From an uncultured Alphaproteobacteria bacterium (lineage in GTDB: Bacteria > Pseudomonadota > Alphaproteobacteria > Micavibrionales > Micavibrionaceae), in contig OY969717.1 in assembly GCA_963702155.1 (NCBI GenBank), positions 657,563 through 721,562 on the forward strand: a DNA stretch of 64,000 bases, read 5' to 3'. Each line of letters begins with the position of its first letter. Position 1 is the first letter of the stretch. The notes beneath the pieces were generated by a model. It searched no databases and was not told the origin of the DNA. It was given only the letters and a program-made list of their open reading frames with translations. Below are positions 4,747-60,622 of the stretch, piece after piece. The position numbers and the translations under genes are program-made.

Positions 4747-4998
4747 TTGAAAATATACACCATCGAAAATTTATGCAAGATGGATTATGATCTTGTCATG
4801 AGGCAAAGAATACACGGCGTTCAAGATCACCCAGAATATGAAACACTAAAGACCTATGACGGCGATGTTGCCGAAGGGCTTTACCGTGTCCGGCTGGACT
4901 ATCATGCTTGGGGCAAATCCACCAACCTGTTTTGTTATTTTACTGATCTCACAACTGATAGCCGCTTTCGTTTAAGTGTTTTTCATCGCGGAGGTTAG
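4747..4998 (+). CDS. Hypothetical protein, possibly a truncated relic
   Basis: 83-aa ORF with a non-ATG track start (first ATG is at MDYDL). It ends exactly where the duplicated MauE segment begins. Confidence 0.3.
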   Translation: MKIYTIENLCKMDYDLVMRQRIHGVQDHPEYETLKTYDGDVAEGLYRVRLDYHAWGKSTNLFCYFTDLTTDSRFRLSVFHRGG

Positions 4999-5303
4999 TG
5001 ATCGGCATGACGATAAAGATGTTTATTGCTATCAGCATGTGCGCTCTGGCTATTCAAAAGCTTCGCGATCTTTATGCGTTCTCAAACCAGTTTATCACTT
5101 ATGATCTGCTGGCCATGCGGTGGGTGCGCTATGCCTATATCTATCCATTTGTGGAAATGCTGGCCGGTGTTTGCATGATCGCAGGTGTATTCATTCCGAT
5201 AGCGGCTCCGGCGGCTTTGTTCATAGGAACCATTGGTGCAGTATCCGTGTTTAAAGCTGTGTATGTAGAGAAACGCGACATCAAATGCGCTTGTGTCGGA
5301 GGA
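4998..5303 (+). pseudogene. 5' fragment of a MauE/DoxX-family membrane protein gene (duplicate of 21922..22227)
   Basis: Collinear with 21922..22227: 6 mismatches in the first ~115 nt, then identical. Homology stops after CGGAGGA at 5303, and the ORF runs into unrelated sequence. Confidence 0.75.
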
Positions 5304-5870
5304 AATTATAAATCTCATCTTCACGAACAATAGTATCGTTACGTTCGCTGTTGATCTCATAATTAGCCATAAGGAAGTAACGCAAGAAACGTAAGGGCTT
5401 TTCTTTGTTTTTTTCAAGCGGACTGGTGATCTTTTTCCATTCATCTTTTAACTGGAAAAATTGCTTGGGTGAGACCTGTGTAAATAATAGATTTTTCAAA
5501 AGATCCATAGGGTTTAGGCCAACGCCGCGCTCGTTAATCGTTTCAAAGATTTTTAGTGCGCTACTTACATCCGTAGAGATTTGAATGAAAACTACATTAT
5601 TGGCTAGATGCCCCCAATACTTTTTCAGTATGGCTTCATCATCATAGTTATTGATCAGGAAGCGATAAATAACGTCATAGGCGTTCAATATATTCTCAAC
5701 AGACCCATAAACCTCAATACCAGAACTTTGAATGTTGGCGCGAACAACTTGCGGATCACCATTCGCTTGAACAATCTTTTCAATAACCTCGCCAGCATTT
5801 TCGTATCTTGGCTCCAGTTTAAGATTAGTTTTAATGTCGCCTTGTGCATCAGTATATACAGACGGTAAAT
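5304..5870 (-). pseudogene. DUF262 (GmrSD-type N-terminal domain) gene fragment
   Basis: The minus-strand frame contains ...FETINERGVGLNPMDLLKNLLF, a DUF262-type motif. The 3' end is cut at the 5303 junction. There is no start codon or DGQQR box upstream, and a further frame break lies near 5870. Confidence 0.55.
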
Positions 5871-21524: not shown

Positions 21525-21921
21525 TGAGCGAAGGTAAAAGCTGTTGCGGCTCTAAAGCAGCAAACAATGATGCATCTAAAAACAGGCAAATCTATATCGC
21601 ATGGTGACAGACAAACATATTTGTCCGTACGGCATTAAATCGAAAGACTTGCTTAGAACGGCAAGGATATGAGGTTGAAGATCATCATCTACAAAACGCG
21701 AGAAGAAACGGATGCGTTTAAAGAAAAAGCATGATGTAAAAACTACACCGCAAACCTTTATTAATGGTAAACGTATCGGCGGTCATGATGATCTTGTTGA
21801 GCATTTTGGCATCACCACAATGAAACAAGAAGGTACAACCTATCAGCCTATTATTGCCATTTTTGCTACTACATTTCTTAATGGCACTTGGCGGTTAGTT
21901 GGGCAATGACTGGGGACAATC
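21524..21921 (+). pseudogene. Glutaredoxin-like domain gene, frameshifted, probably once fused to the downstream MauE/DoxX gene
   Basis: Fragments ICPYGIKSKDLL and TTPQTFINGKRIGGHDDLVEHFG (glutaredoxin signature) lie in different frames. Confidence 0.55.
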
Positions 21922-22308
21922 GTGATCGGCTTGACGATAAAGATGTTTATTGCTATCAGTATGTGCGCTCTGGCTATTCAAAAGCTTCACGATCTTTATG
22001 CGTTTTCAAACCAATTTATCACTTACGATCTGCTGGCCATGCGGTGGGTGCGCTATGCCTATATCTATCCATTTGTGGAAATGCTGGCCGGTGTTTGCAT
22101 GATCGCAGGTGTATTCATTCCGATAGCGGCTCCGGCGGCTTTGTTCATAGGAACCATTGGTGCAGTATCCGTGTTTAAAGCTGTGTATGTAGAGAAACGC
22201 GACATCAAATGCGCTTGTGTCGGAGGAGACAGCAACGTACCGCTTGGAGCGATATCCCTAACTGAAAACCTCATGATGATGGGCATGGCGATCTGGATGC
22301 TTTTGTAA
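21922..22308 (+). CDS. MauE/DoxX-family redox-associated membrane protein
   Basis: 128-aa four-TM protein with a CACVGG motif. Full-length counterpart of the 4998..5303 fragment. Confidence 0.7.
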   Translation: MIGLTIKMFIAISMCALAIQKLHDLYAFSNQFITYDLLAMRWVRYAYIYPFVEMLAGVCMIAGVFIPIAAPAALFIGTIGAVSVFKAVYVEKRDIKCACVGGDSNVPLGAISLTENLMMMGMAIWMLL

Positions 22309-22369
22309 AAAAAGGCTTATTCCATTTAACCTCTCCCAATTCCCCGAAAAATGGTTAATATAGTGCTGC

Positions 22370-22567
22370 TATGTCGAAATGGGCATGGTCGGGCAGTAGT
22401 AGACCCGTAACAAGCGTCTGACAAAACGATATTTGTCGCTCTCTGGCTTTATGGCCGGGGGGCGGCAGCGTATGTCCAGAGCCTCGGCTTAAAGGCTGTC
22501 GCGGCTGTCTTGTTACGGTCTACTAACCTCCGGCCACCATGCCTAATAAACGGCATGGTGGTTTTTT
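22370..22567 (+). ncRNA. Candidate structured RNA (unknown class) ending in an intrinsic terminator
   Basis: 15-bp helix 22399-22414/22509-22523, with nested hairpins. Terminator CCACCATGCC/GGCATGGTGG + T6 at 22534-22567. A 5' GGCATGGT (22382-22389) can compete for ACCATGCC. Confidence 0.45.
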
Positions 22568-22599
22568 ATTAGGAGTTTTGCCGCTATGAAAACGGTAAT

Positions 22600-22830
22600 G
22601 AATAATGTAACACTATTTGTTGTGACGGGGCGTAGTAACCCCAACGAATATACGTATGGAGCGCGTGTTTGCGTAATGGCTCCTCTCTACCTTATGGTCG
22701 AGAGGACGTGCGGAATACAATACTCGCTTGCGAGGAATACGCCGTGCATCGATTCGTCGATGTTACTAACCTCTTGGCTACCAGAGGTATCTTGTCACAA
22801 TGCAATGCAGATGAGATATGCGATGGAGCT
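22600..22830 (+). other. Second densely structured segment, either a leader of the XRE gene or an independent RNA
   Basis: At least six perfect hairpins, including CATCGA-TTCG-TCGATG (22747-22762). Shares TACTAACCTC with the upstream RNA. Confidence 0.35.
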
Positions 22831-22840
22831 TAATTAAAAC

Positions 22841-23305
22841 ATGGGACAAACAAACAAAACCCAAAAAACAAAACAAGGTCCGACCGAGGAAGATGTCTAT
22901 ATCGGCATCCGGCTAAGAACCAAACGCTCTATTTTAGGGTGGTCACAGGAGAGATTGGCCAAGGCGCTTGATCTCTCTTTTCAGCAGGTGCAAAAATACG
23001 AAAACGGCACCAACCGCATATCCAGCGGAACACTCTATAAAATCTCAAAAATCCTTGATGTGCCTTTTGATTACTTTGTCTCGGGCATGGAGGAGTATCT
23101 CTTTAAAACACTGGTGGGGTTTTCGGACACGGATCAGGAGCCAATAGATGGCGCACCGTTCGCAAGGCTGGAAGATTATATGTCTGACAAGGAGATTGTC
23201 CGATTCATCAATAAATACCGTAAAATCGCGCATAACCCTAAGCATGTAAAGCTGGTCAATGAAATGATGAATACGCTGGCTAAGAGCAGTCTGGAGGGGA
23301 AATGA
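22841..23305 (+). CDS. XRE-family HTH transcriptional regulator
   Basis: IGIRLRTKRSILGWSQERLAKALDLSFQQVQKYENGTNRIS is a canonical HTH_3 domain. Confidence 0.85.
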   Translation: MGQTNKTQKTKQGPTEEDVYIGIRLRTKRSILGWSQERLAKALDLSFQQVQKYENGTNRISSGTLYKISKILDVPFDYFVSGMEEYLFKTLVGFSDTDQEPIDGAPFARLEDYMSDKEIVRFINKYRKIAHNPKHVKLVNEMMNTLAKSSLEGK

Positions 23306-23604
23306 AACGATTTTTATTTTGTGTTTTGTTATTGGCCGGCTGTACTTCGCAAACCCAATTTGAGAAAGACGCGATTGTGCGCGCAAAACAGGATCCGGAC
23401 ACGGCAGAAAGCTATTTTTTGCAGCGCATCGAAGAGGAGCAGCCGCCCATAGAACAGCAAGCGGTCTACCTATACGCCATGGGCGTGGCCAGTGAGCGCA
23501 TGGGCGATGATATCGAAGCGCTCAATAATTACCTGAGTGCGGAAGCACTGGGCTATGCTAAAGCAACACAAGCTCTGCAACGCATACGAAAAAAGATTCC
23601 ATAA
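23302..23604 (+). CDS. Small lipoprotein with a TPR-like helical repeat
   Basis: Lipobox LLLAGC after a signal peptide. Its start overlaps the XRE gene stop by 4 nt. Confidence 0.65.
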   Translation: MKRFLFCVLLLAGCTSQTQFEKDAIVRAKQDPDTAESYFLQRIEEEQPPIEQQAVYLYAMGVASERMGDDIEALNNYLSAEALGYAKATQALQRIRKKIP

Positions 23605-23621
23605 CCTCAAAATCCGGACAC

Positions 23622-23659
23622 AAAAAAAGCCCCAGACCTGCACGAGGCAAGCCTGGGGC
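23622..23659 (-). terminator. Intrinsic terminator oriented for minus-strand transcription
   Basis: Strong hairpin GCCCCAGACCTGC/GCAAGCCTGGGGC. The T-run is present only on the minus strand (A7 on plus at 23622-23628). Confidence 0.5.
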
Positions 23660-23693
23660 GTTGGAAATCTTATGTATTTTTCAATAATTGCAA

Positions 23694-23722
23694 TTGTTGC
23701 TATTGCGGCAATTGGTTAATAT
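23694..23722 (+). promoter_or_regulatory. Sigma70-like promoter candidate for the NTase cassette
   Basis: TTGTTG, 17 nt, then TAATAT. Followed by AAGGA and an ATG at 23754. Confidence 0.35.
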
Positions 23723-23753
23723 GGCAGTTAATCAAATTTTTAAGGATTTGGAC

Positions 23754-24524
23754 ATGGGGACATCATATCTTCAAAGCCTCTTGGCACAACGTAGTGCATC
23801 TGGAAGTGTTACATCAGCGGTTGATGCGGCGAACAAGCTCATACCTCTTATCAATCGATGGGGTAATGGCTATGTTGCAAATATTTCCCTGTCTGGGTCA
23901 TATGCGAAAGGTACGGCAGTCCAGGGCGGCACAGATGTCGACCTATTCATTTCATTATCCTCAAATCTCAATGACAGTCTCGCTGATATTTACAATACTT
24001 TGTATAATTGCCTAAGCCAGAACGGACATACTGCTCTTCAAAAACAAAATGTGTCCATCGGCACAACAGTGAATGGGTTTAAGGTCGATCTTGTTCCGGC
24101 GAAGAGACAAGATGCATATAGTCAGGATCATAGCCTGTATCGCCGGAAGGCAAACACATGGACAAAAACCAATGTTCAAAAACATATTGATTTGGTTTCA
24201 AGATCGGGACGTTTGAGCGAAATTCGCGTTATGAAGCTCTGGCGCAATCATAAAAATCTTGAATTCCCGTCTTTTTATCTGGAACTCTGCGTTATTGAAG
24301 CTTTAAAAGGTTATGGCCTGATATCGGGAGGAAGCGGCGATCTATCCAAAAATATTGTCCGCGTTCTAAATTATTTAAAGACGGATTTTAAAACAGCGCG
24401 GTTTCTTGATCCTGCTAATACCAATAATGTCATTTCGGGTGATATGACGCTGCAGGAAAAAACCCTTGTTGCCCAGGCTGCAGAACGATCACTCGCCGGA
24501 AGTTGGGAACAATTTATTTCATGA
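23754..24524 (+). CDS. SMODS/CD-NTase-like nucleotidyltransferase (Pol-beta fold)
   Basis: SGSYAKGTAVQGGTDVDLF (GS...DxD), a third acidic strand FKVDLVPA, then W.KTN..KH...R..K.WR and PSFYLE, as in the minimal CD-NTase/OAS-like layout. Alternative starts at 23721 and 23688. Confidence 0.7.
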   Translation: MGTSYLQSLLAQRSASGSVTSAVDAANKLIPLINRWGNGYVANISLSGSYAKGTAVQGGTDVDLFISLSSNLNDSLADIYNTLYNCLSQNGHTALQKQNVSIGTTVNGFKVDLVPAKRQDAYSQDHSLYRRKANTWTKTNVQKHIDLVSRSGRLSEIRVMKLWRNHKNLEFPSFYLELCVIEALKGYGLISGGSGDLSKNIVRVLNYLKTDFKTARFLDPANTNNVISGDMTLQEKTLVAQAAERSLAGSWEQFIS

Positions 24525-24569
24525 ACAGATTCTCTGCTCTCACATCTTCTTGCCGGATTTAACGAGGAG

Positions 24570-25238
24570 TTGTTAAACCAGCTTAAATTAGGCCGAAGCA
24601 CAACAGAACACCCCGTCTTAAAAGGCGATGCCAGTGAGTTGGCATGGCTGGATATGCTCCAAACCTATTTGCCCAAAAGATACGAGGCGCAGAGCGGTGT
24701 GGTGATCGATGCCGAAGGTGCTAAAAGCGATCAGATCGACATCATCATTTTTGATCGCCAGTATTCACCCTTTATCTTTACCAATAACGGCATTCATTAT
24801 GTTCCGGCAGAGAGCGTGTACGCCGTCTTTGAAGTGAAACAGTCTTTGAATAAAGAAAATGTCTCATACGCACAGCAAAAAATAGAATCTGTCCGGTCTT
24901 TAAGCAGAACAAGTTTGCCAGTGCCGAATATTTACGGAACGAGCAAAGCCAAAGAGCCGCATTTTATCCATGGAGGACTATTATGCCTCAATTCGGATTG
25001 GGCGCCGCCATTTGGTCAGCCTTTTGAAAAACAGATGCAGGAGGCCAATCCTGCATCAATGATCAATTTGATCTGCGTTGCTGCAGAAGGGTTTTTTGAG
25101 CTGGGCGATGATGTGCAAGCCTATCAAAAACAAAAGCCGGTTACATTATTCTTCTTTAGAGTAATCAGTCTCCTGCAACAAAAAGGCACCGCGCCGATGA
25201 TGGACATTATGGCCTATGCAAAATGGCTGGATGGTTAA
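24570..25238 (+). CDS. PD-(D/E)xK nuclease-fold protein (DUF6602-like); start codon uncertain
   Basis: SDQIDIIIFD ... VYAVFEVKQSL gives a D...(D/E)xK arrangement. The frame is open from 24525, immediately after the NTase TGA and in the same frame. The only in-frame start is TTG at 24570. Confidence 0.6.
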   Translation: MLNQLKLGRSTTEHPVLKGDASELAWLDMLQTYLPKRYEAQSGVVIDAEGAKSDQIDIIIFDRQYSPFIFTNNGIHYVPAESVYAVFEVKQSLNKENVSYAQQKIESVRSLSRTSLPVPNIYGTSKAKEPHFIHGGLLCLNSDWAPPFGQPFEKQMQEANPASMINLICVAAEGFFELGDDVQAYQKQKPVTLFFFRVISLLQQKGTAPMMDIMAYAKWLDG

Positions 25239-28200
25239 ATTCCCCCAATCAAATTTTTGTAATAAGCATGCTTCTGCATGATCTCGTCTTGCGTTAAAAG
25301 CCGCCCATGAGCATCGCCAAAGTAATACACGCTATCGCTAACGCTGGTGCCTAAATAGAGTTTTTGTGAGAAGGATGTAATTTCATCTTCGGGATTAAAT
25401 GGCATTTCTGCTATGGCGAGGGAACCATTTTCGTACAGGCGCATTTCTGTGTTGTCAGTGACCGCCAGCGTGATAATTACAGGCTTGGCTGTGTCGGTAT
25501 AAAGCCCGTTTGTAATGGTGATGTTTTTATTATCAGCATCGCGGCGTTTGTAATCAATGCGGGTCGGGTCGAGATTGCGACCGACCACCATGGCGCGATT
25601 GCCGTTAAAACCCCACATCTGGTCTTCATTGCCGTTGGCAATATGCGCGACAATCGTGATTGTCATCCCAGCCTTTGCGCCGTAATTGGATAGCAGATAA
25701 CGCAGAGTGCCGTCGGTCACGGAATTGGATTGAATGATGGGCTGGCCATTTATACCGCCCTGGGCATGATATTCCGGTCTTAGTAAAGGGTCATCTTGGC
25801 TTATATGAAAACCATTGCCGCTTTGATCGGTGAGTTGCTCCACACGACCAGAACCATCGAGCAACACCGTATCGGCATTCCAGACCGCATCTACATCACC
25901 GAACGCTTGTGGCGGCGCTGGATTATCAGATACGACGACACGCTGCCGCGCAAACGGCTGTAACGGTTTAGTATCGGCGGCATTGTTAGAGGGAAACTGG
26001 CTCGGCACCGGATAATTGAGCGGCCCATAACCCCATGTCGCTTCAACAATATCGCCATCCTCTATAAAGTCAGCCACAGCCAGATTAAACTCTGTTTCTG
26101 TGGTTTTTTGCGCGGCATATACTTCGCTTTGTTGGCCGTTGATTTCGACATACCAACCTTTGTAACGCAAATTATCAGCATCCTGCGCCAGCGTATCGCC
26201 GCCATCCAGATCAAGAGCAACCTTGATATTGCGCGTATTTTTAAGAGCTGATAACGCGGTCATAGCTGGGCCGAATACGCCCTGGGCATCACGTTTGCCA
26301 ATATAAAACGCGGCAAGATCGGCTTGCCTCTGGCCATATAAAATACGCCCAGCATCATTGAAATGCACCGTATCATCTAAAGGCTGGTCAACCGTCCAGA
26401 CCCCGGGGACAATACATGAAGCCTCTTGTGTGACTTCAATTTGGATTTCTCTAACGCGCTGCCATGCTTGCGCTGCTAGCTCGTTCGTGTCCACGCCTAG
26501 ATAATCAAGGGCAATGACGGCATTCGGGCATTTGGCTTTCATGGCCGCAAACAGCATAAGCAGTGCCTGTTTGTATTGTCCGAAATTCAGATCCACAATG
26601 CCACCATCGGTTTGGCCTTGGTTCCAGTGAATAATCTGCACATCCTCTGGGCTGTCAAAATCGGCATCGATACGGGCAACCCAACTATTATAGGCCGGGC
26701 CGTTTACGATAAGTTCGGCATCATTATTGACCCAATAATTCCCTGTATTTGAAGAACGCAACAAGCCGGATCCTCCGGTTGCGCCCTGTGAGGTTGTTAC
26801 GATATCGAAGTAATCCTTGGCGCGCGCAATATAGGCGCCATCGCCATCACCGCCATTGATTGTGGTTTGCTGTTGCATAAGGGATTGCCCAGCATAGGAA
26901 GCAAAGAGATATTCCAGCTTCGTGGTCTTTTCCCAAACTTCCTCGGCGATCACCTTGCCAACGGTTTCATTGCTGGAGAGCGAATAATGCTGTTCATCGC
27001 CTGGTATCCCTGGCTGGTCTGTTCCTTCAACAAAATAAACGCGGGAGACGTTATCAGCCACATCCTTCTGCCCGTCGATGATGGCATCATAATCAGCTTC
27101 GTCTAAGGAGATATCGGTCGACCATTCGGGCATGCCGACATTGAACCAGGGTAAGCCGGGATATTGTAAGGCCGTGCGGATTTCATAAATGAGAGCCTTT
27201 AATTCGGCGGCGTAATCATTGCGGGGAACATCATTGCCAGCATCGGATTCACCTTGCCCCCATATAATACCGGCCAACTGACCATGTTGGCGCAGCATGC
27301 TTAAGCGGTTGATGGTCGCCATAACAGAGGTGCCAAGCCCTTTAATCTTTGTGCCGCTTGTACGGTATCCGGCGCGTTCACTTTGGGTCGGCCATGTAAC
27401 GGTTGAGCCGCCGATCAAACCACTCCCATTGACGTTACAGGGAACAACGCCGATATCCTGACCCAATAAATCCACCATGTGGTTGGCAAAAAATCCGGCA
27501 TACCCGACCTCCTGAATAGAGTTTTGTAAAACAGGCAGAACGATATTTGTATCATCGGTGTACGGATCTGCATATTGTTTGACCGCACCATCATGGGCGA
27601 AGAGATACATATCACTTATATTCGGATAGACCGGAGAACCAGTGGCAATGCCAACACTGTTGGATTGCCCTAAGAACGCATAAAATTTCTTGTTCGGATC
27701 AAATGTTACACCCGTCAAAATATCTGCGTTGGATGTTAATTTGCGCCCCTGAGTTTGTGTTAAACAGTGATCGTAATAATGGAATTCATGTAAGGTTTCG
27801 GTCGACATACCAAAGCTACCACCCAACTGCGCCAAATCAACGCGGTTTAAACCAACCGGCCTAACAAAATCAGTATCAATGGAGGCATACAATGCACCGT
27901 TAACCCAGCACATCATATGGTTTTCATTCCAGCCTATGGCCACCTTAATGCGGCCACTAGCAAAACAATCCATAAAGCTGTCAAAAACCTCGTTTGTTTC
28001 ACCTTCTGTTTTACAAACAAGCCGAAAACGATCTTGTGTATCGCGCCGCTGTAAAAAAATACTATTTGTTATGTCGCCATCATCAGTCACACCAAGGTAA
28101 AGTGGACTGCCTGATAAATCATTTACATCGGAATCGGTTAGATCCAAAAACACTGTGCCTTGCGCGGCATTGAAATTGGGGATGGTTTCAACACCTTGAA

Positions 28201-28279
28201 CCGGACTTTTATTGATATAGGCCGGACGCGGAAATCGGACGCGTGGTTGCGGCGACATGCGCCCTGGTTGAATAAGCAT
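25235..28279 (-). CDS. Tail fibre / receptor-modifying protein with two SGNH (sialate O-acetylesterase-like) domains and LamG-like ends
   Basis: GQSNSVG...WGQGESD, then a second GQS...WNQGQTD...DDTVHF set. Concanavalin/LamG-like N- and C-terminal regions. Confidence 0.75.
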   Translation of the reverse strand: MLIQPGRMSPQPRVRFPRPAYINKSPVQGVETIPNFNAAQGTVFLDLTDSDVNDLSGSPLYLGVTDDGDITNSIFLQRRDTQDRFRLVCKTEGETNEVFDSFMDCFASGRIKVAIGWNENHMMCWVNGALYASIDTDFVRPVGLNRVDLAQLGGSFGMSTETLHEFHYYDHCLTQTQGRKLTSNADILTGVTFDPNKKFYAFLGQSNSVGIATGSPVYPNISDMYLFAHDGAVKQYADPYTDDTNIVLPVLQNSIQEVGYAGFFANHMVDLLGQDIGVVPCNVNGSGLIGGSTVTWPTQSERAGYRTSGTKIKGLGTSVMATINRLSMLRQHGQLAGIIWGQGESDAGNDVPRNDYAAELKALIYEIRTALQYPGLPWFNVGMPEWSTDISLDEADYDAIIDGQKDVADNVSRVYFVEGTDQPGIPGDEQHYSLSSNETVGKVIAEEVWEKTTKLEYLFASYAGQSLMQQQTTINGGDGDGAYIARAKDYFDIVTTSQGATGGSGLLRSSNTGNYWVNNDAELIVNGPAYNSWVARIDADFDSPEDVQIIHWNQGQTDGGIVDLNFGQYKQALLMLFAAMKAKCPNAVIALDYLGVDTNELAAQAWQRVREIQIEVTQEASCIVPGVWTVDQPLDDTVHFNDAGRILYGQRQADLAAFYIGKRDAQGVFGPAMTALSALKNTRNIKVALDLDGGDTLAQDADNLRYKGWYVEINGQQSEVYAAQKTTETEFNLAVADFIEDGDIVEATWGYGPLNYPVPSQFPSNNAADTKPLQPFARQRVVVSDNPAPPQAFGDVDAVWNADTVLLDGSGRVEQLTDQSGNGFHISQDDPLLRPEYHAQGGINGQPIIQSNSVTDGTLRYLLSNYGAKAGMTITIVAHIANGNEDQMWGFNGNRAMVVGRNLDPTRIDYKRRDADNKNITITNGLYTDTAKPVIITLAVTDNTEMRLYENGSLAIAEMPFNPEDEITSFSQKLYLGTSVSDSVYYFGDAHGRLLTQDEIMQKHAYYKNLIGGI

Positions 28280-58447: not shown

Positions 58448-60622
58448 TCATTCTTCATACCCCTCCAGCTCCGGCCATTCACGCGGATCAGTCACTTCTT
58501 TTGTGTGGTTATCGGCACCGCGATAGTGGGTTGGTAAAATCTCGACCATCTGGTCTTCGTGCGGATATCTCATGTGCTGGACAACCAGATAACCGTTGGT
58601 GGATTTGCTTTTGCCAATGCCTAGATCCGGCAATTCCTTGACGTATTTTATGTATCCTTTTTGGAGCAGGACTTTGACGCGTTCCTTGATGCTATAAAAA
58701 CCGCCCAATCCTTCCTTGTTTTCAAAGGCTCGGCAGAATGCATCTGCGGTGTAGAGTTCTCCGGCTTTGCTTTCTTTGGCAAGCATGAAAAGGACACGAT
58801 CATTTTTGCGGTCACGCTCTGCATCAAGTTTTCCGCCGTATTTTGCATTGGCGAGGCGTTGAACAGCCATATCCAATTCGACCCATTGGCCATCCACTTT
58901 ATCGACGAGCTTGTTATCAATGGCCGGGCCGTTTCGAAGCTCGAAGATCAACATTCTCTCGCTTTTGAGTTCGTCTTCTCGAAATAACAAAATCCCTGTG
59001 CTGTAATAACTCCGCAGGGATCCGGCACCACTTAAGGCTTGGAACGGATCATCTTTAAATTGCGCTTTGGAGAGCTTTTTAGTGTGGTGGATGAGGATAA
59101 CGCCGGAGCTGGGATTGACCATCTCGCGCAGTTTTTCAACGCGCTCCTGAAGGAAAAACAGCATGGAATTATTGTCGTTCTCGCCACGGCTGTCGGGGCC
59201 ACCGTCAAAAACATTGCGGATCGGGTCGATACAAATAATGTCCGGACCGTCAGGGAATTTTGATTTTATTGTTGCCGCCGCCATTTCAACGCCATCCTCA
59301 TCGAGAATGAATTTTGTGCGCGGCGTTATAACGATATTTTCAGCGGCTTTTTGGGCGAGATCACTATCCGAGACAATTTGCCGGATTCGCTCTCTCAAAT
59401 ATGCATATTCAATTTCGGCCTGTAGATAGAAAACCTTTAATGGTCTGGGAGGTCGGAAATTTAAAAACGGCAATCCCGCCGCCATATGCACAAGCATGGT
59501 GAGGACAAAATCGCTTTTCCCAACCTTGGGCGATCCGGCAAAAACAGCGATGCCACCAGGCGTTAAAATGCGCGGCGCGATAATGTCATCCGGCATGGGA
59601 GAGATATCATCAAAGAGCTGCTGGAGGGTATATGCCTCAAACTGGGGCTTTTCAAACCTATGGTCGGGTGTGGTGGCCGTTTCTAAGAAATTTTTAACGT
59701 CAAAACTCTCTTCGGCACCATCGGCAGCATCCCATTTTTCGGGCTTGTCCTCGGGCGGCAACAGCATGTGAACCGATTTGACCTTGGTGTGTTTTAGAGC
59801 TTTGGCAACGCGCTCTGCATAATCTTTGCCCGGGACATCATTATCCGGCCAGATATAGACGTCTTTGCCATACAGCGGCGACCAGTCCGTTTTATCGACG
59901 GGTGCGTTAGCACCGTTCATGGTGGTTGTGGCGCAGTATCCTTGCTGGATAAGAGCTTCGGCGCATTTTTCGCCCTCGCATAAAATAACAGCATCGGTCT
60001 TGATGATGCCCGGGATGTTATAGAGTGGCCGTGGATCCGGTGCCTCATATTTTCCGGTCAAAACATTATATGGACGGAAGATTTTGCGCCGACCAACTGG
60101 GTCATGACGATAAACACAGGCAATCAATTTGCCGTTCTCGTCAAAATAGTCCCATTTTCCGGTATATGGCCCCAGATTATCCTGTGGCGGCTTTTTCTTT
60201 GTCCGTTCGCTCTCCGGTGGCTTGGGCTTCTCCGTGACTTTGCTGCGCTCCCCCAGATATGTACGCAAACGCCTGATAACCTCGGAAAAATGGTGTTTTG
60301 CGTCCAAACTGTGATACGCGGCAAATAAATCGAGAATATCGCCGCCTTGACCTGTGGCGAAGTCAGTCCACAAGCCGGCCTTTTTGCCATTCAGCTCAAC
60401 GACCAGGCTTTCCCCAGCTTTTCCGCTCACATCACCGATTTTAAATTTGCCTTTATCGACGCATCCGGCGGGGAACAGGCCGAACAAATTGTTTTCAAGA
60501 TTGTCTAAAAACTTTTGCTTCAGCTCTTCCTTGGTCATCTCTTCCTTGATTTCAGGCGCGATCTGGTCTTCCGCGTTGTTAAAATCAAAATAAGAGTCAG
60601 TGGTGGGAGCTGTTTCGCTCAT
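58448..60622 (-). CDS. Bifunctional primase (Toprim) / RecA-fold replicative helicase
   Basis: Start MSETAPT at 60622 (ATGA overlap). Toprim motifs ILCEGEKCA and VYIWPDNDVPGKDYA. Walker A GSPKVGKSDF. Confidence 0.82.
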   Translation of the reverse strand: MSETAPTTDSYFDFNNAEDQIAPEIKEEMTKEELKQKFLDNLENNLFGLFPAGCVDKGKFKIGDVSGKAGESLVVELNGKKAGLWTDFATGQGGDILDLFAAYHSLDAKHHFSEVIRRLRTYLGERSKVTEKPKPPESERTKKKPPQDNLGPYTGKWDYFDENGKLIACVYRHDPVGRRKIFRPYNVLTGKYEAPDPRPLYNIPGIIKTDAVILCEGEKCAEALIQQGYCATTTMNGANAPVDKTDWSPLYGKDVYIWPDNDVPGKDYAERVAKALKHTKVKSVHMLLPPEDKPEKWDAADGAEESFDVKNFLETATTPDHRFEKPQFEAYTLQQLFDDISPMPDDIIAPRILTPGGIAVFAGSPKVGKSDFVLTMLVHMAAGLPFLNFRPPRPLKVFYLQAEIEYAYLRERIRQIVSDSDLAQKAAENIVITPRTKFILDEDGVEMAAATIKSKFPDGPDIICIDPIRNVFDGGPDSRGENDNNSMLFFLQERVEKLREMVNPSSGVILIHHTKKLSKAQFKDDPFQALSGAGSLRSYYSTGILLFREDELKSERMLIFELRNGPAIDNKLVDKVDGQWVELDMAVQRLANAKYGGKLDAERDRKNDRVLFMLAKESKAGELYTADAFCRAFENKEGLGGFYSIKERVKVLLQKGYIKYVKELPDLGIGKSKSTNGYLVVQHMRYPHEDQMVEILPTHYRGADNHTKEVTDPREWPELEGYEE

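Follow-up and report, generated by a model that had tools for sequence, protein, structure and literature searches.

Locus and structure of the RNA element

The window studied here, 64,000 nucleotides (nt) of contig OY969717.1 (positions 657,563 to 721,562) from an uncultured alphaproteobacterium of the family Micavibrionaceae, carries on its plus strand a structured RNA element at 22356–22567, which we term cassette 1, and a second unit in tandem at 22623–22783, termed cassette 2. Cassette 1 is preceded by a czc metal-efflux island and a MauE-like gene. Cassette 2 is followed by the genes for an XRE-family helix-turn-helix (HTH) regulator and a small lipoprotein and, 3′ of the latter, by a SMODS/DUF6602 pair; prophage tail genes converge from the opposite strand. 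By its architecture, the element appears to be an uncatalogued, widespread relative of the antisense RNAs c4 of phage P1 and CI of phage P4, and by analogy with these a mechanism is proposed for it below.

An earlier reading made from the sequence alone (here called the sequence-only reading) had described a highly structured, non-coding RNA of about 200 nt at this place. This description was borne out, and the main sequence features lie where that reading had put them. Inspection of the open reading frames (ORFs) of the window gave no credible one across the cassette 1 stretch, and the plus strand from 22360 to 22570 folds at −103.4 kcal/mol, compared with −67.7 ± 4.4 kcal/mol for dinucleotide shuffles (z = −8.2), none of 200 shuffles being as good. 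On the minus strand the fold of this region is far weaker (z = −4.6). The intrinsic terminator that had been noted was also recovered by a terminator scan, which gave 12 pairs at 22532–22563, seven of them G-C, and then a T run; the ACCA end of the predicted mature RNA sits inside its 5′ arm. Of 114 family members, 70 have an equivalent hairpin and U run.

Cassette 1 has a putative −10 hexamer, TAATAT, and in relatives TAATGT-like hexamers occur at an equal spacing upstream of the 5′ hairpin. A sigma-70 consensus scan of 21800–23200 did not call TAATAT at 22356; the sole site called was that at 22578–22606, a possible promoter for cassette 2 and for the XRE operon. The cassette 1 transcript probably starts at about 22365–22370. 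The 5′ hairpin, H0, has equivalents in relatives and in copy 2, a second copy of cassette 1 in the same genome. The features of the locus are listed in Table 1.

Table 1. Features of the two cassettes and of the genes behind them, in window coordinates (alignment A3 and model R1 are described in the text)
Feature	Position	Strand	Basis or remark
Putative −10 hexamer TAATAT, cassette 1	22356–22361	+	read from the sequence
5′ hairpin H0, GCTATGTC with GGCATGGT	22368–22389 (arms 22368–22375 and 22382–22389)	+	in minimum-energy fold
b1 box TAGTAGA, leader	22397–22403	+	partner b′, 22519–22525
a1 box CGTAACAAG, leader	22406–22414	+	partner a′, 22509–22517
Long helix, GTAGACCCGTAACAAG with CTTGTTACGGTCTAC	22399–22414 with 22509–22523	+	15 bp
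Leader hairpin TGACAAA ... TTTGTCG	22419–22438	+	covariation in A3
Alternative hairpin ALT, GTCGCTCTCTGGC with GCCGGGGGGCGGC	22435–22466 (22435–22447 and 22454–22466)	+	12 bp; in full-length minimum-energy fold
Predicted mature c4/Xcc1-like antisense RNA	22453–22539	+	87 nt; predicted ends
P1, closing stem	22453–22461 with 22527–22535	+	9 bp
P2	22462–22469 with 22495–22502	+	8 bp
P2a	22479–22482 with 22487–22490	+	4 bp; UUCG-type loop
P3	22503–22508 with 22515–22520	+	
a′ recognition segment CTTGTTACG	22509–22517	+	P3 loop and flank
b′ recognition segment TCTACTA	22519–22525	+	single-stranded linker
ACCA 3′ end of predicted mature RNA	22536–22539	+	
Intrinsic terminator, GGCCACCATGCC, loop, GGCATGGTGG, T6	22532–22567	+	terminator scan
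Promoter-like site TTGCCG, 17 nt, AATAAT	22578–22606	+	consensus match only
Cassette 2, complete second element in tandem	22623–22783	+	model R1, 30.7 bits, E = 1e-5
Cassette 2 b1 hairpin	22627–22642	+	
Cassette 2 a1 ACGAAT	22644–22649	+	
Cassette 2 a′ ATTCGT	22752–22757	+	
Cassette 2 b′ TTACTAA	22763–22769	+	3′ end is ACCA
XRE-family HTH regulator gene	22841–23305	+	Pfam HTH_3, E = 8.8e-15; directly 3′ of cassette 2
Small lipoprotein gene	23302–23604	+	ORF with lipobox-type N terminus; overlaps XRE gene end

Distribution of the family

BLAST searches in 40 relatives found the core of the element in 13 genomes, often multiple times, and a pattern derived from this core matched more than 118 stretches in a collection of species-representative genomes. 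The hosts of these matches are Micavibrio-like and other Alphaproteobacteria, several Verrucomicrobia, one metagenome-assembled genome (MAG) of Planctomycetota and a few gammaproteobacterial MAGs. The same pattern has only two matches in the IMG/VR viral contigs, and BLAST of 22370–22840 against 50,697 phage records gave no match. In all, 115 distinct elements were extracted, of which 66 non-redundant ones were aligned (alignment A3). Within this set the invariance of GTATGTCCA, GUAUGUCCA/UAAAG and TAAAG..GTCGCG is in part a product of the search pattern.

From A3 a covariance model, named R1, was made; it has three matches in the genome of the window, namely 22387–22539 in cassette 1 (136.6 bits), copy 2 (137.2 bits) and cassette 2. 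In the order, R1 matches 142 of the 201 genomes and 57 of the 71 genera, with 1–14 copies in each genome; in a sample of the class it matches 67 of 401 genomes and 61 of 308 genera. These counts correspond to about 70% of the genomes sampled in the order and to about 17% in the class; the family is missed by current Rfam thresholds. A further R1 match in the window, at 59447–59578 (−), reaches only 15.5 bits (E = 0.05) and was treated as due to chance; it lies inside a primase/helicase-like prophage ORF of 730 amino acids, and the Rfam model sRNA-Xcc1 gives only 21 bits there.

At least six family copies occur on one chromosome, that of a Chthoniobacteraceae MAG (CP170506.1; loci L039, L041, L051 and L083). 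Two of them, at L051, lie 128 nt apart with a repeat period of 292 nt. Several of the CP170506.1 copies precede proteins of about 65–73 amino acids with closely similar N termini, and the one of these that was scanned, at L039, is a GYF domain protein.

Covariation and two exclusive folds

The structure was derived from an unbiased scan of all column pairs of A3, followed by pair counting. The 15-bp long helix that had been proposed from the sequence alone was confirmed by both copy 2 and the alignment. Copy 2 (C1:1976415–1976617) has 90% identity to cassette 1, and the main difference between them is one block on each side of this helix, where CGTAACAAG/CTTGTTACG is replaced by CGCTAATAC/GTATTAGCG with complementarity retained; in the 66 homologues the helix columns are 90–94% paired, with up to four pair types. 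Counted separately, the seven pairs of b1:b′ (A3 columns 11–17 with 177–183) are 94.4% paired, six of the seven being altered on both sides, and the seven pairs of a1:a′ (columns 24–33 with 161–172) are about 90% paired with 4–5 pair types per column; at columns 28:171, for example, the pairs are AU in 23 sequences, UA in 19, GC in nine and CG in seven. When the 3′ partners of these helices were slid as a control, pairing fell to 34–46%. The alignment shows strong selection on both of these pairings, a1:a′ and b1:b′, and shows them to be hypervariable.

Among the hairpins that the sequence-only reading had nested inside the long helix, GACAAA/TTTGTC is conserved and covaries: the leader hairpin (columns 42–48 with 59–76) is 93% paired, with both sides altered in six of seven pairs. 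AGCC/GGCT also covaries, in the form of a GAGC-CUCG-GCUU tetraloop hairpin, whereas CTCTGG/CCAGAG did not hold (59.6% paired, compared with 59.0% in shuffles). A pseudoknot of leader CGG with CCG, proposed by eye, was only 61.5% paired and was rejected.

The aligned columns describe two folds. The open fold consists of a b1 hairpin, the leader hairpin, P1, P2, P2a and P3; for the leader hairpin, P1, P2, P2a and a P3 of 5 bp, 96.4% of the cells in the 66 sequences are paired, a value reached by none of 500 shuffles, and double-sided changes are found in 277 cells compared with 76 in shuffles. Sliding the 3′ partners reduced pairing to 34–51%. The closed fold consists of b1:b′, a1:a′, P2a and the hairpin ALT (columns 72–84 with 105–116), which is 93.9% paired and shows a triple covariation, column 116 changing from G to A in step with columns 72 and 148, its two alternative partners. 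ALT takes up the 5′ arms of P1 and P2 as well as the leader hairpin's 3′ arm and is incompatible with all three. Both folds covary in A3; the c4-like open fold and the closed fold are, on this alignment, both conserved and cannot coexist. The sequence-only reading was right that there are mutually exclusive pairings, and these are under selection, but the best-supported pair is ALT against the c4-like closing stems and not terminator against anti-terminator.

Folded alone, the predicted mature RNA (22453–22539) adopts exactly the open structure of closing stem, inner arm, hairpin and ACCA, at −42.9 kcal/mol. The ACCA stands directly 3′ of the 9-bp P1, is near-invariant in the family and resembles the acceptor end of a tRNA. 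The internal loop GUAUGUCCA/UAAAG around the UUCG-type hairpin (22470–22478 and 22491–22494; A3 columns 119–127 and 142–145) is unpaired and is invariant even in those relatives that BLAST had found; tertiary contacts or protein binding may be its role.

In the full precursor the closed fold reaches −103.4 kcal/mol, compared with −81.5 kcal/mol for the leader and the mature RNA folded separately. Over 114 elements the difference favours the closed fold by a mean of 15.4 kcal/mol, and by more than 5 kcal/mol in 99% of them. These energies show a strong preference of the uncleaved precursor for the closed fold.

This preference, of 15–22 kcal/mol, is what would be expected if the element were a purely cis-acting structured leader in which no small RNA (sRNA) acts in trans and the functional form is the rod of a1:a′ and b1:b′, for example as a 5′ structure that stabilises the RNA or is processed by RNase III, or as a co-transcriptional attenuator choosing between read-through and termination at 22532–22567. 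Moreover, no full target other than the cassette's own leader was found in the genome, and the 3′ arm of H0 can pair with the 5′ arm of the terminator, own partners pairing better than non-own ones (p = 0.0002). However, a static rod does not explain the covariation of P1, P2 and P3, which is impossible in the closed fold, nor the near-invariant ACCA after P1, nor a helix sequence that is hypervariable and not merely complementary. An extension of the rod to the terminator, by pairing of leader CCGGGG with the 3′ arm of P1, was rejected, as it is without covariation support (80.5% paired, compared with 78.8% in shuffles). We regard a purely cis-acting leader as unlikely.

The H0 pairing had itself been proposed by the sequence-only reading, as an anti-terminator. 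The segment GGCATGGT does lie where it was seen, being the 3′ arm of H0, and its pairing with the terminator 5′ arm ACCATGCC is possible for the subfamily of the window, with −13.5 kcal/mol in the window itself, near the top of 114 elements. Across the family the support is modest: own pairs average −8.6 kcal/mol and non-own pairs −7.7 kcal/mol (permutation test), and the pairing is strong only in the window's subfamily.

Address diversity and possible target pairing

The 115 elements carry 103 combinations of a and b boxes, here called addresses, on one conserved scaffold. The number of distinct boxes is 87–95 for a and 29–43 for b, with 87 variants of a′ and 29 of b′. So many combinations on one scaffold point to a specificity determinant, as in the heteroimmune c4 RNAs of P1 and P7, and not to a ligand pocket.

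The sequence-only reading had seen in the alternative pairings the logic of a riboswitch or attenuator, and this part of it failed. A metabolite riboswitch working through a terminator and an anti-terminator would account for the conserved inner domain (GUAUGUCCA ... UAAAG) and the terminator, and alternative pairings do exist. However, the most variable parts of the element are the two sides of the long helix, which change together, and a metabolite sensor would show the opposite; the covarying helix is an address and not an aptamer. The downstream genes are unrelated in function across about 100 loci and have no metabolic theme, the copies number 1–14 per genome and stand in mobile contexts, and no Rfam riboswitch match was obtained either in a gathering-threshold scan of the window or in a permissive scan of 22200–22900. 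The invariance of GUAUGUCCA/UAAAG is partly the artefact of the search pattern described above, and the motif is missing from cassette 2. We give hardly any credence to a riboswitch.

Possible targets were examined by duplex energies, with the test limited to the start regions of downstream genes because a longer downstream stretch was dominated by terminator sequence. The b′ segment pairs at a mean of −8.60 kcal/mol with the start region of the gene behind it, compared with −7.63 kcal/mol for the start regions belonging to other elements (permutation p = 0.0002); for a′ the difference is marginal (p = 0.027). Some loci, such as L100 with the sequence CGGGAGTT-GTAAG-ATG-GCATTAC, appear to have true b2-a2 sites.

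Within the window, GGAGGTTAGT at 4990–4999 (+) is the exact complement of ACUAACCUCC, which comprises b′ and the 3′ arm of P1. It stands at the start (GTG 4998 or ATG 5007) of an orphan 5′ copy of MauE that brackets the metal island, and about 0.02 matches of this type would be expected by chance in the window. This site could be a trans target or a coincidence.

Cassette 2 and genomic context

No terminator was found between cassette 2 and the XRE gene. The inner domain of cassette 2 is of the Xcc1 type (AAUACAAUAC ... GGAAUA) and is without the GUAUGUCCA/UAAAG motif of cassette 1. The same tandem layout is found at another locus, L098, and comparison of its second unit with that of the window shows that both boxes are compensated, TGATAA/TTATCA and AACAAG/CTTGTT. 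From the arrangement of the locus, cassette 2, with its different a address, would form the 5′ untranslated region of the XRE-lipoprotein operon at the accessory end of the prophage. An 83-codon ORF at 22586–22837 (+) overlaps cassette 2, and a similar ORF at L098 is owed to the conservation of the RNA sequence. It is probably not a gene and, because of its overlap with the RNA cassette, is best left unannotated. The second cassette of L098, at 5230–5380 (−), has the a address AACAAG/CTTGTT, which is that of the first cassette of the window, on a different scaffold; this suggests that addresses recur or are swapped between scaffold types.

The surroundings of copy 2 (locus L011, C1:1971415–1981617 of the same genome) comprise, in order, a metal P-type ATPase gene, the RNA, an XRE gene, a lipoprotein gene and converging tail genes, the homologous XRE-lipoprotein pair being at L011 5224–5761. 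In both regions, L011 2799–7108 and window 21922–28279, the RNA copy stands between heavy-metal genes and the XRE-lipoprotein pair. The genome thus contains two related prophage ends beside metal-resistance genes, of which the one in the window has additionally gained cassette 2 and the SMODS/DUF6602 pair.

In relatives, the next gene begins 70–95 nt past the RNA and is of varied nature, including lipoproteins, zinc-ribbon membrane proteins, GIY-YIG, Mrr, NERD, DUF4268, DUF2846, Sel1, GYF and XRE proteins. In a scan of 42 downstream proteins, Pfam families were scattered and the majority had none. The upstream neighbours of relatives, judged by their N-terminal sequences only, include probable integrases, transposases and a group II intron reverse transcriptase.

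Such neighbours might also be expected if the ACCA-ended RNA gene were mainly a tRNA-like attachment site, a target for the integration of prophages and islands that would thereby acquire variable cargo. The tRNA-like end, the position of both copies at the edge of a prophage or island and the integrases and transposases near some relatives agree with this. However, no duplicated 3′ fragment of the RNA was found elsewhere in the genome, and hence there are no direct repeats of the attL/attR type; furthermore, the cargo genes of relatives begin 70–95 nt past the RNA and show a matching ribosome-site signal, which indicates one transcription unit rather than a junction. An attachment site is therefore a very improbable explanation of the element.

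Proposed function

No Rfam family matches at gathering thresholds in the window or in 19 homologous loci. The sequence-only reading had not been able to place the element by eye in any of the families it considered. The 3′ half shows a sub-threshold likeness to two families. In a permissive scan of 22200–22900, the model sRNA-Xcc1 (RF02221; gathering score 53) matches 22453–22543 with 36.5 bits (E = 1.2e-4) and 22697–22786, in cassette 2, with 38.6 bits (E = 3.6e-5), and C4 (RF01695; gathering score 45) matches 22447–22541 with 21.9 bits. Because of these matches, both the 3′ half of cassette 1 and the stretch 240 nt downstream are likened here to the small antisense RNAs of phage immunity. 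The architecture agrees with that of the c4/CI type, a closing stem surrounding an inner arm and a hairpin, with a′ in the loop and b′ single-stranded, and the upstream a1/b1 boxes (seqA, IsrK-like) are present in the same transcript and strongly compensated. Rfam scanning to E ≤ 10 gave no sequence match to isrK or to c4-a1b1.

Taking these results together, we estimate a probability of about 0.72 that cassette 1 is a self-contained antisense-RNA cassette of the phage c4/CI (IsrK-C4) kind, self-masked, released and address-specific, with a second unit in tandem. Several points weigh against this. The C4 and sRNA-Xcc1 scores are both under their gathering thresholds, and the downstream genes are not antirepressors, unlike those of the classic P1 system. 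A duplex scan of the window revealed no convincing a2/b2 site at the ribosome-binding site of the XRE gene, and in a whole-genome pattern search for cassette 1 and copy 2 the sole full b-a match was the own leader. The family-wide ribosome-site signal is small (about 1 kcal/mol) and marginal for a′. Finally, given the high stability of the modelled closed fold, a kinetic route would be needed to free the open fold on which RNase P could act.

If cassette 1 is such an antisense cassette, it would comprise its own promoter, a leader with b1 and a1, the 87-nt tRNA-like antisense RNA and the terminator. Its primary transcript would be a self-masked precursor. In the open fold, the ACCA-ended stem would present a substrate for 5′ cleavage of the RNase P type, by analogy with P1 c4 and P4 CI, and this cleavage would free the mature RNA. 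The mature RNA could then pair, according to its address, with leaders that carry the same boxes, whether on its own nascent transcripts or on those of an incoming related element, and in part of the family the ribosome-binding site of the gene that follows could be a further partner. Such pairing would promote termination at 22532–22567 or prevent translation, so that expression of the accessory genes behind the cassette stays low, and the diversity of addresses would prevent cross-talk among the 1–14 copies of a cell. Premature termination in P4 was reportedly described by Sabbattini in 1995 and by Forti in 2002.

A broader proposal, which we put forward tentatively and which may well prove wrong, is that Alphaproteobacteria and some Verrucomicrobia have a large, uncatalogued family of self-masked 'pro-antisense' RNAs that can be programmed through their addresses. 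These would be portable 5′ control modules on horizontally acquired cargo (lipoproteins, nucleases, defence genes and regulators), each copy having its own a/b address, with at least 100 natural orthogonal ones, and each alternating between a closed precursor and a tRNA-like repressor released by RNase P. Were this true, every acquired gene would receive an insulated, self-limiting circuit that also excludes incoming elements of the same address. The element adds a well-supported RNA family to a predatory, small-genome alphaproteobacterial lineage with almost no described regulatory RNAs. Because both folds covary, which is uncommon for bacterial sRNAs, the family lends itself well to the study of RNA refolding and of the masking of precursors in nature, and its approximately 100 natural addresses on one scaffold are candidate orthogonal RNA-RNA regulators.

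Comparison with known systems

The catalogue of Weinberg et al. (2010; PMC2864571) lists a 'c4 antisense RNA' and a separate 'c4-a1b1' motif. Barquist et al. (2013; PMC3632133) describe the P4 immunity system as a pair of an IsrK-like (seqA) and a C4-like (CI) RNA whose outcome is premature termination, and note that P1, P7, N15 and some lambdoid prophages have systems of similar structure. Multi-copy chromosomal C4-like RNAs, apparently GG-processed, were reported in a small-RNA study of Acinetobacter baumannii (PMC5320573), which for C4 assigns a′ to the specificity loop and has b′ occlude the ribosome site.

The family described here shares several features with the c4 system of P1/P7 (immI; C4, RF01695, with a c4-a1b1 leader). 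In both, a small structured antisense RNA with a closing stem and a CCA-type 3′ end derives, in the present family by prediction, from a longer transcript, its a′ and b′ segments are complementary to b1-a1 boxes upstream in the same transcript, and the boxes vary between otherwise similar elements (heteroimmunity in P1/P7). A slight tendency of b′ toward the ribosome-binding site of the following gene may be a further likeness. In contrast to c4, the family has a larger inner domain, a strong intrinsic terminator directly after the RNA, a conserved ALT hairpin and a far more stable self-paired precursor. Whereas c4 controls icd/ant and has an a2/b2 site, none of which was found in this window, the genes behind the RNA here are those of an XRE regulator and a lipoprotein, and elsewhere diverse cargo. 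Nor does the cassette lie at a phage-immunity location with an antirepressor/replication operon; it stands in front of an accessory block, XRE-lipoprotein(-CBASS), on the far side of the tail-fibre genes. The hosts also differ, being Alphaproteobacteria and some Verrucomicrobia.

With P4 CI and its seqA/seqC sites (IsrK-C4), the family would share the excision of an antisense RNA from the leader of the operon that it controls, if processing here proceeds as in P4. A complementary site upstream in the same transcript is common to both, and the premature termination proposed here is the known outcome in P4. Unlike P4, the window has no downstream seqC-like site, and other genes would be controlled.

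sRNA-Xcc1 is the best-scoring Rfam model for both cassettes; like them it has a closing stem, a second hairpin, an AAC-CCC linker and a CCA end. In cassette 2 the likeness extends to its inner AAUACAAUAC ... GGAAUA domain, whereas the inner domain of cassette 1 consists of GUAUGUCCA, the UUCG-type hairpin and UAAAG. sRNA-Xcc1 is reported as an integron-borne, trans-acting sRNA of Xanthomonas, not as a leader-paired cassette like those of the family here.

The hok mRNA of type I toxin-antitoxin systems is inert at full length because of long-range 5′–3′ pairing; its folding is guided by metastable hairpins, and processing leads to an active refolded form. The fold-back inhibition proposed for the present family resembles this in logic only, with no homology, and the masked molecule differs: in hok it is a toxin mRNA, whereas here it would be the antisense RNA itself.

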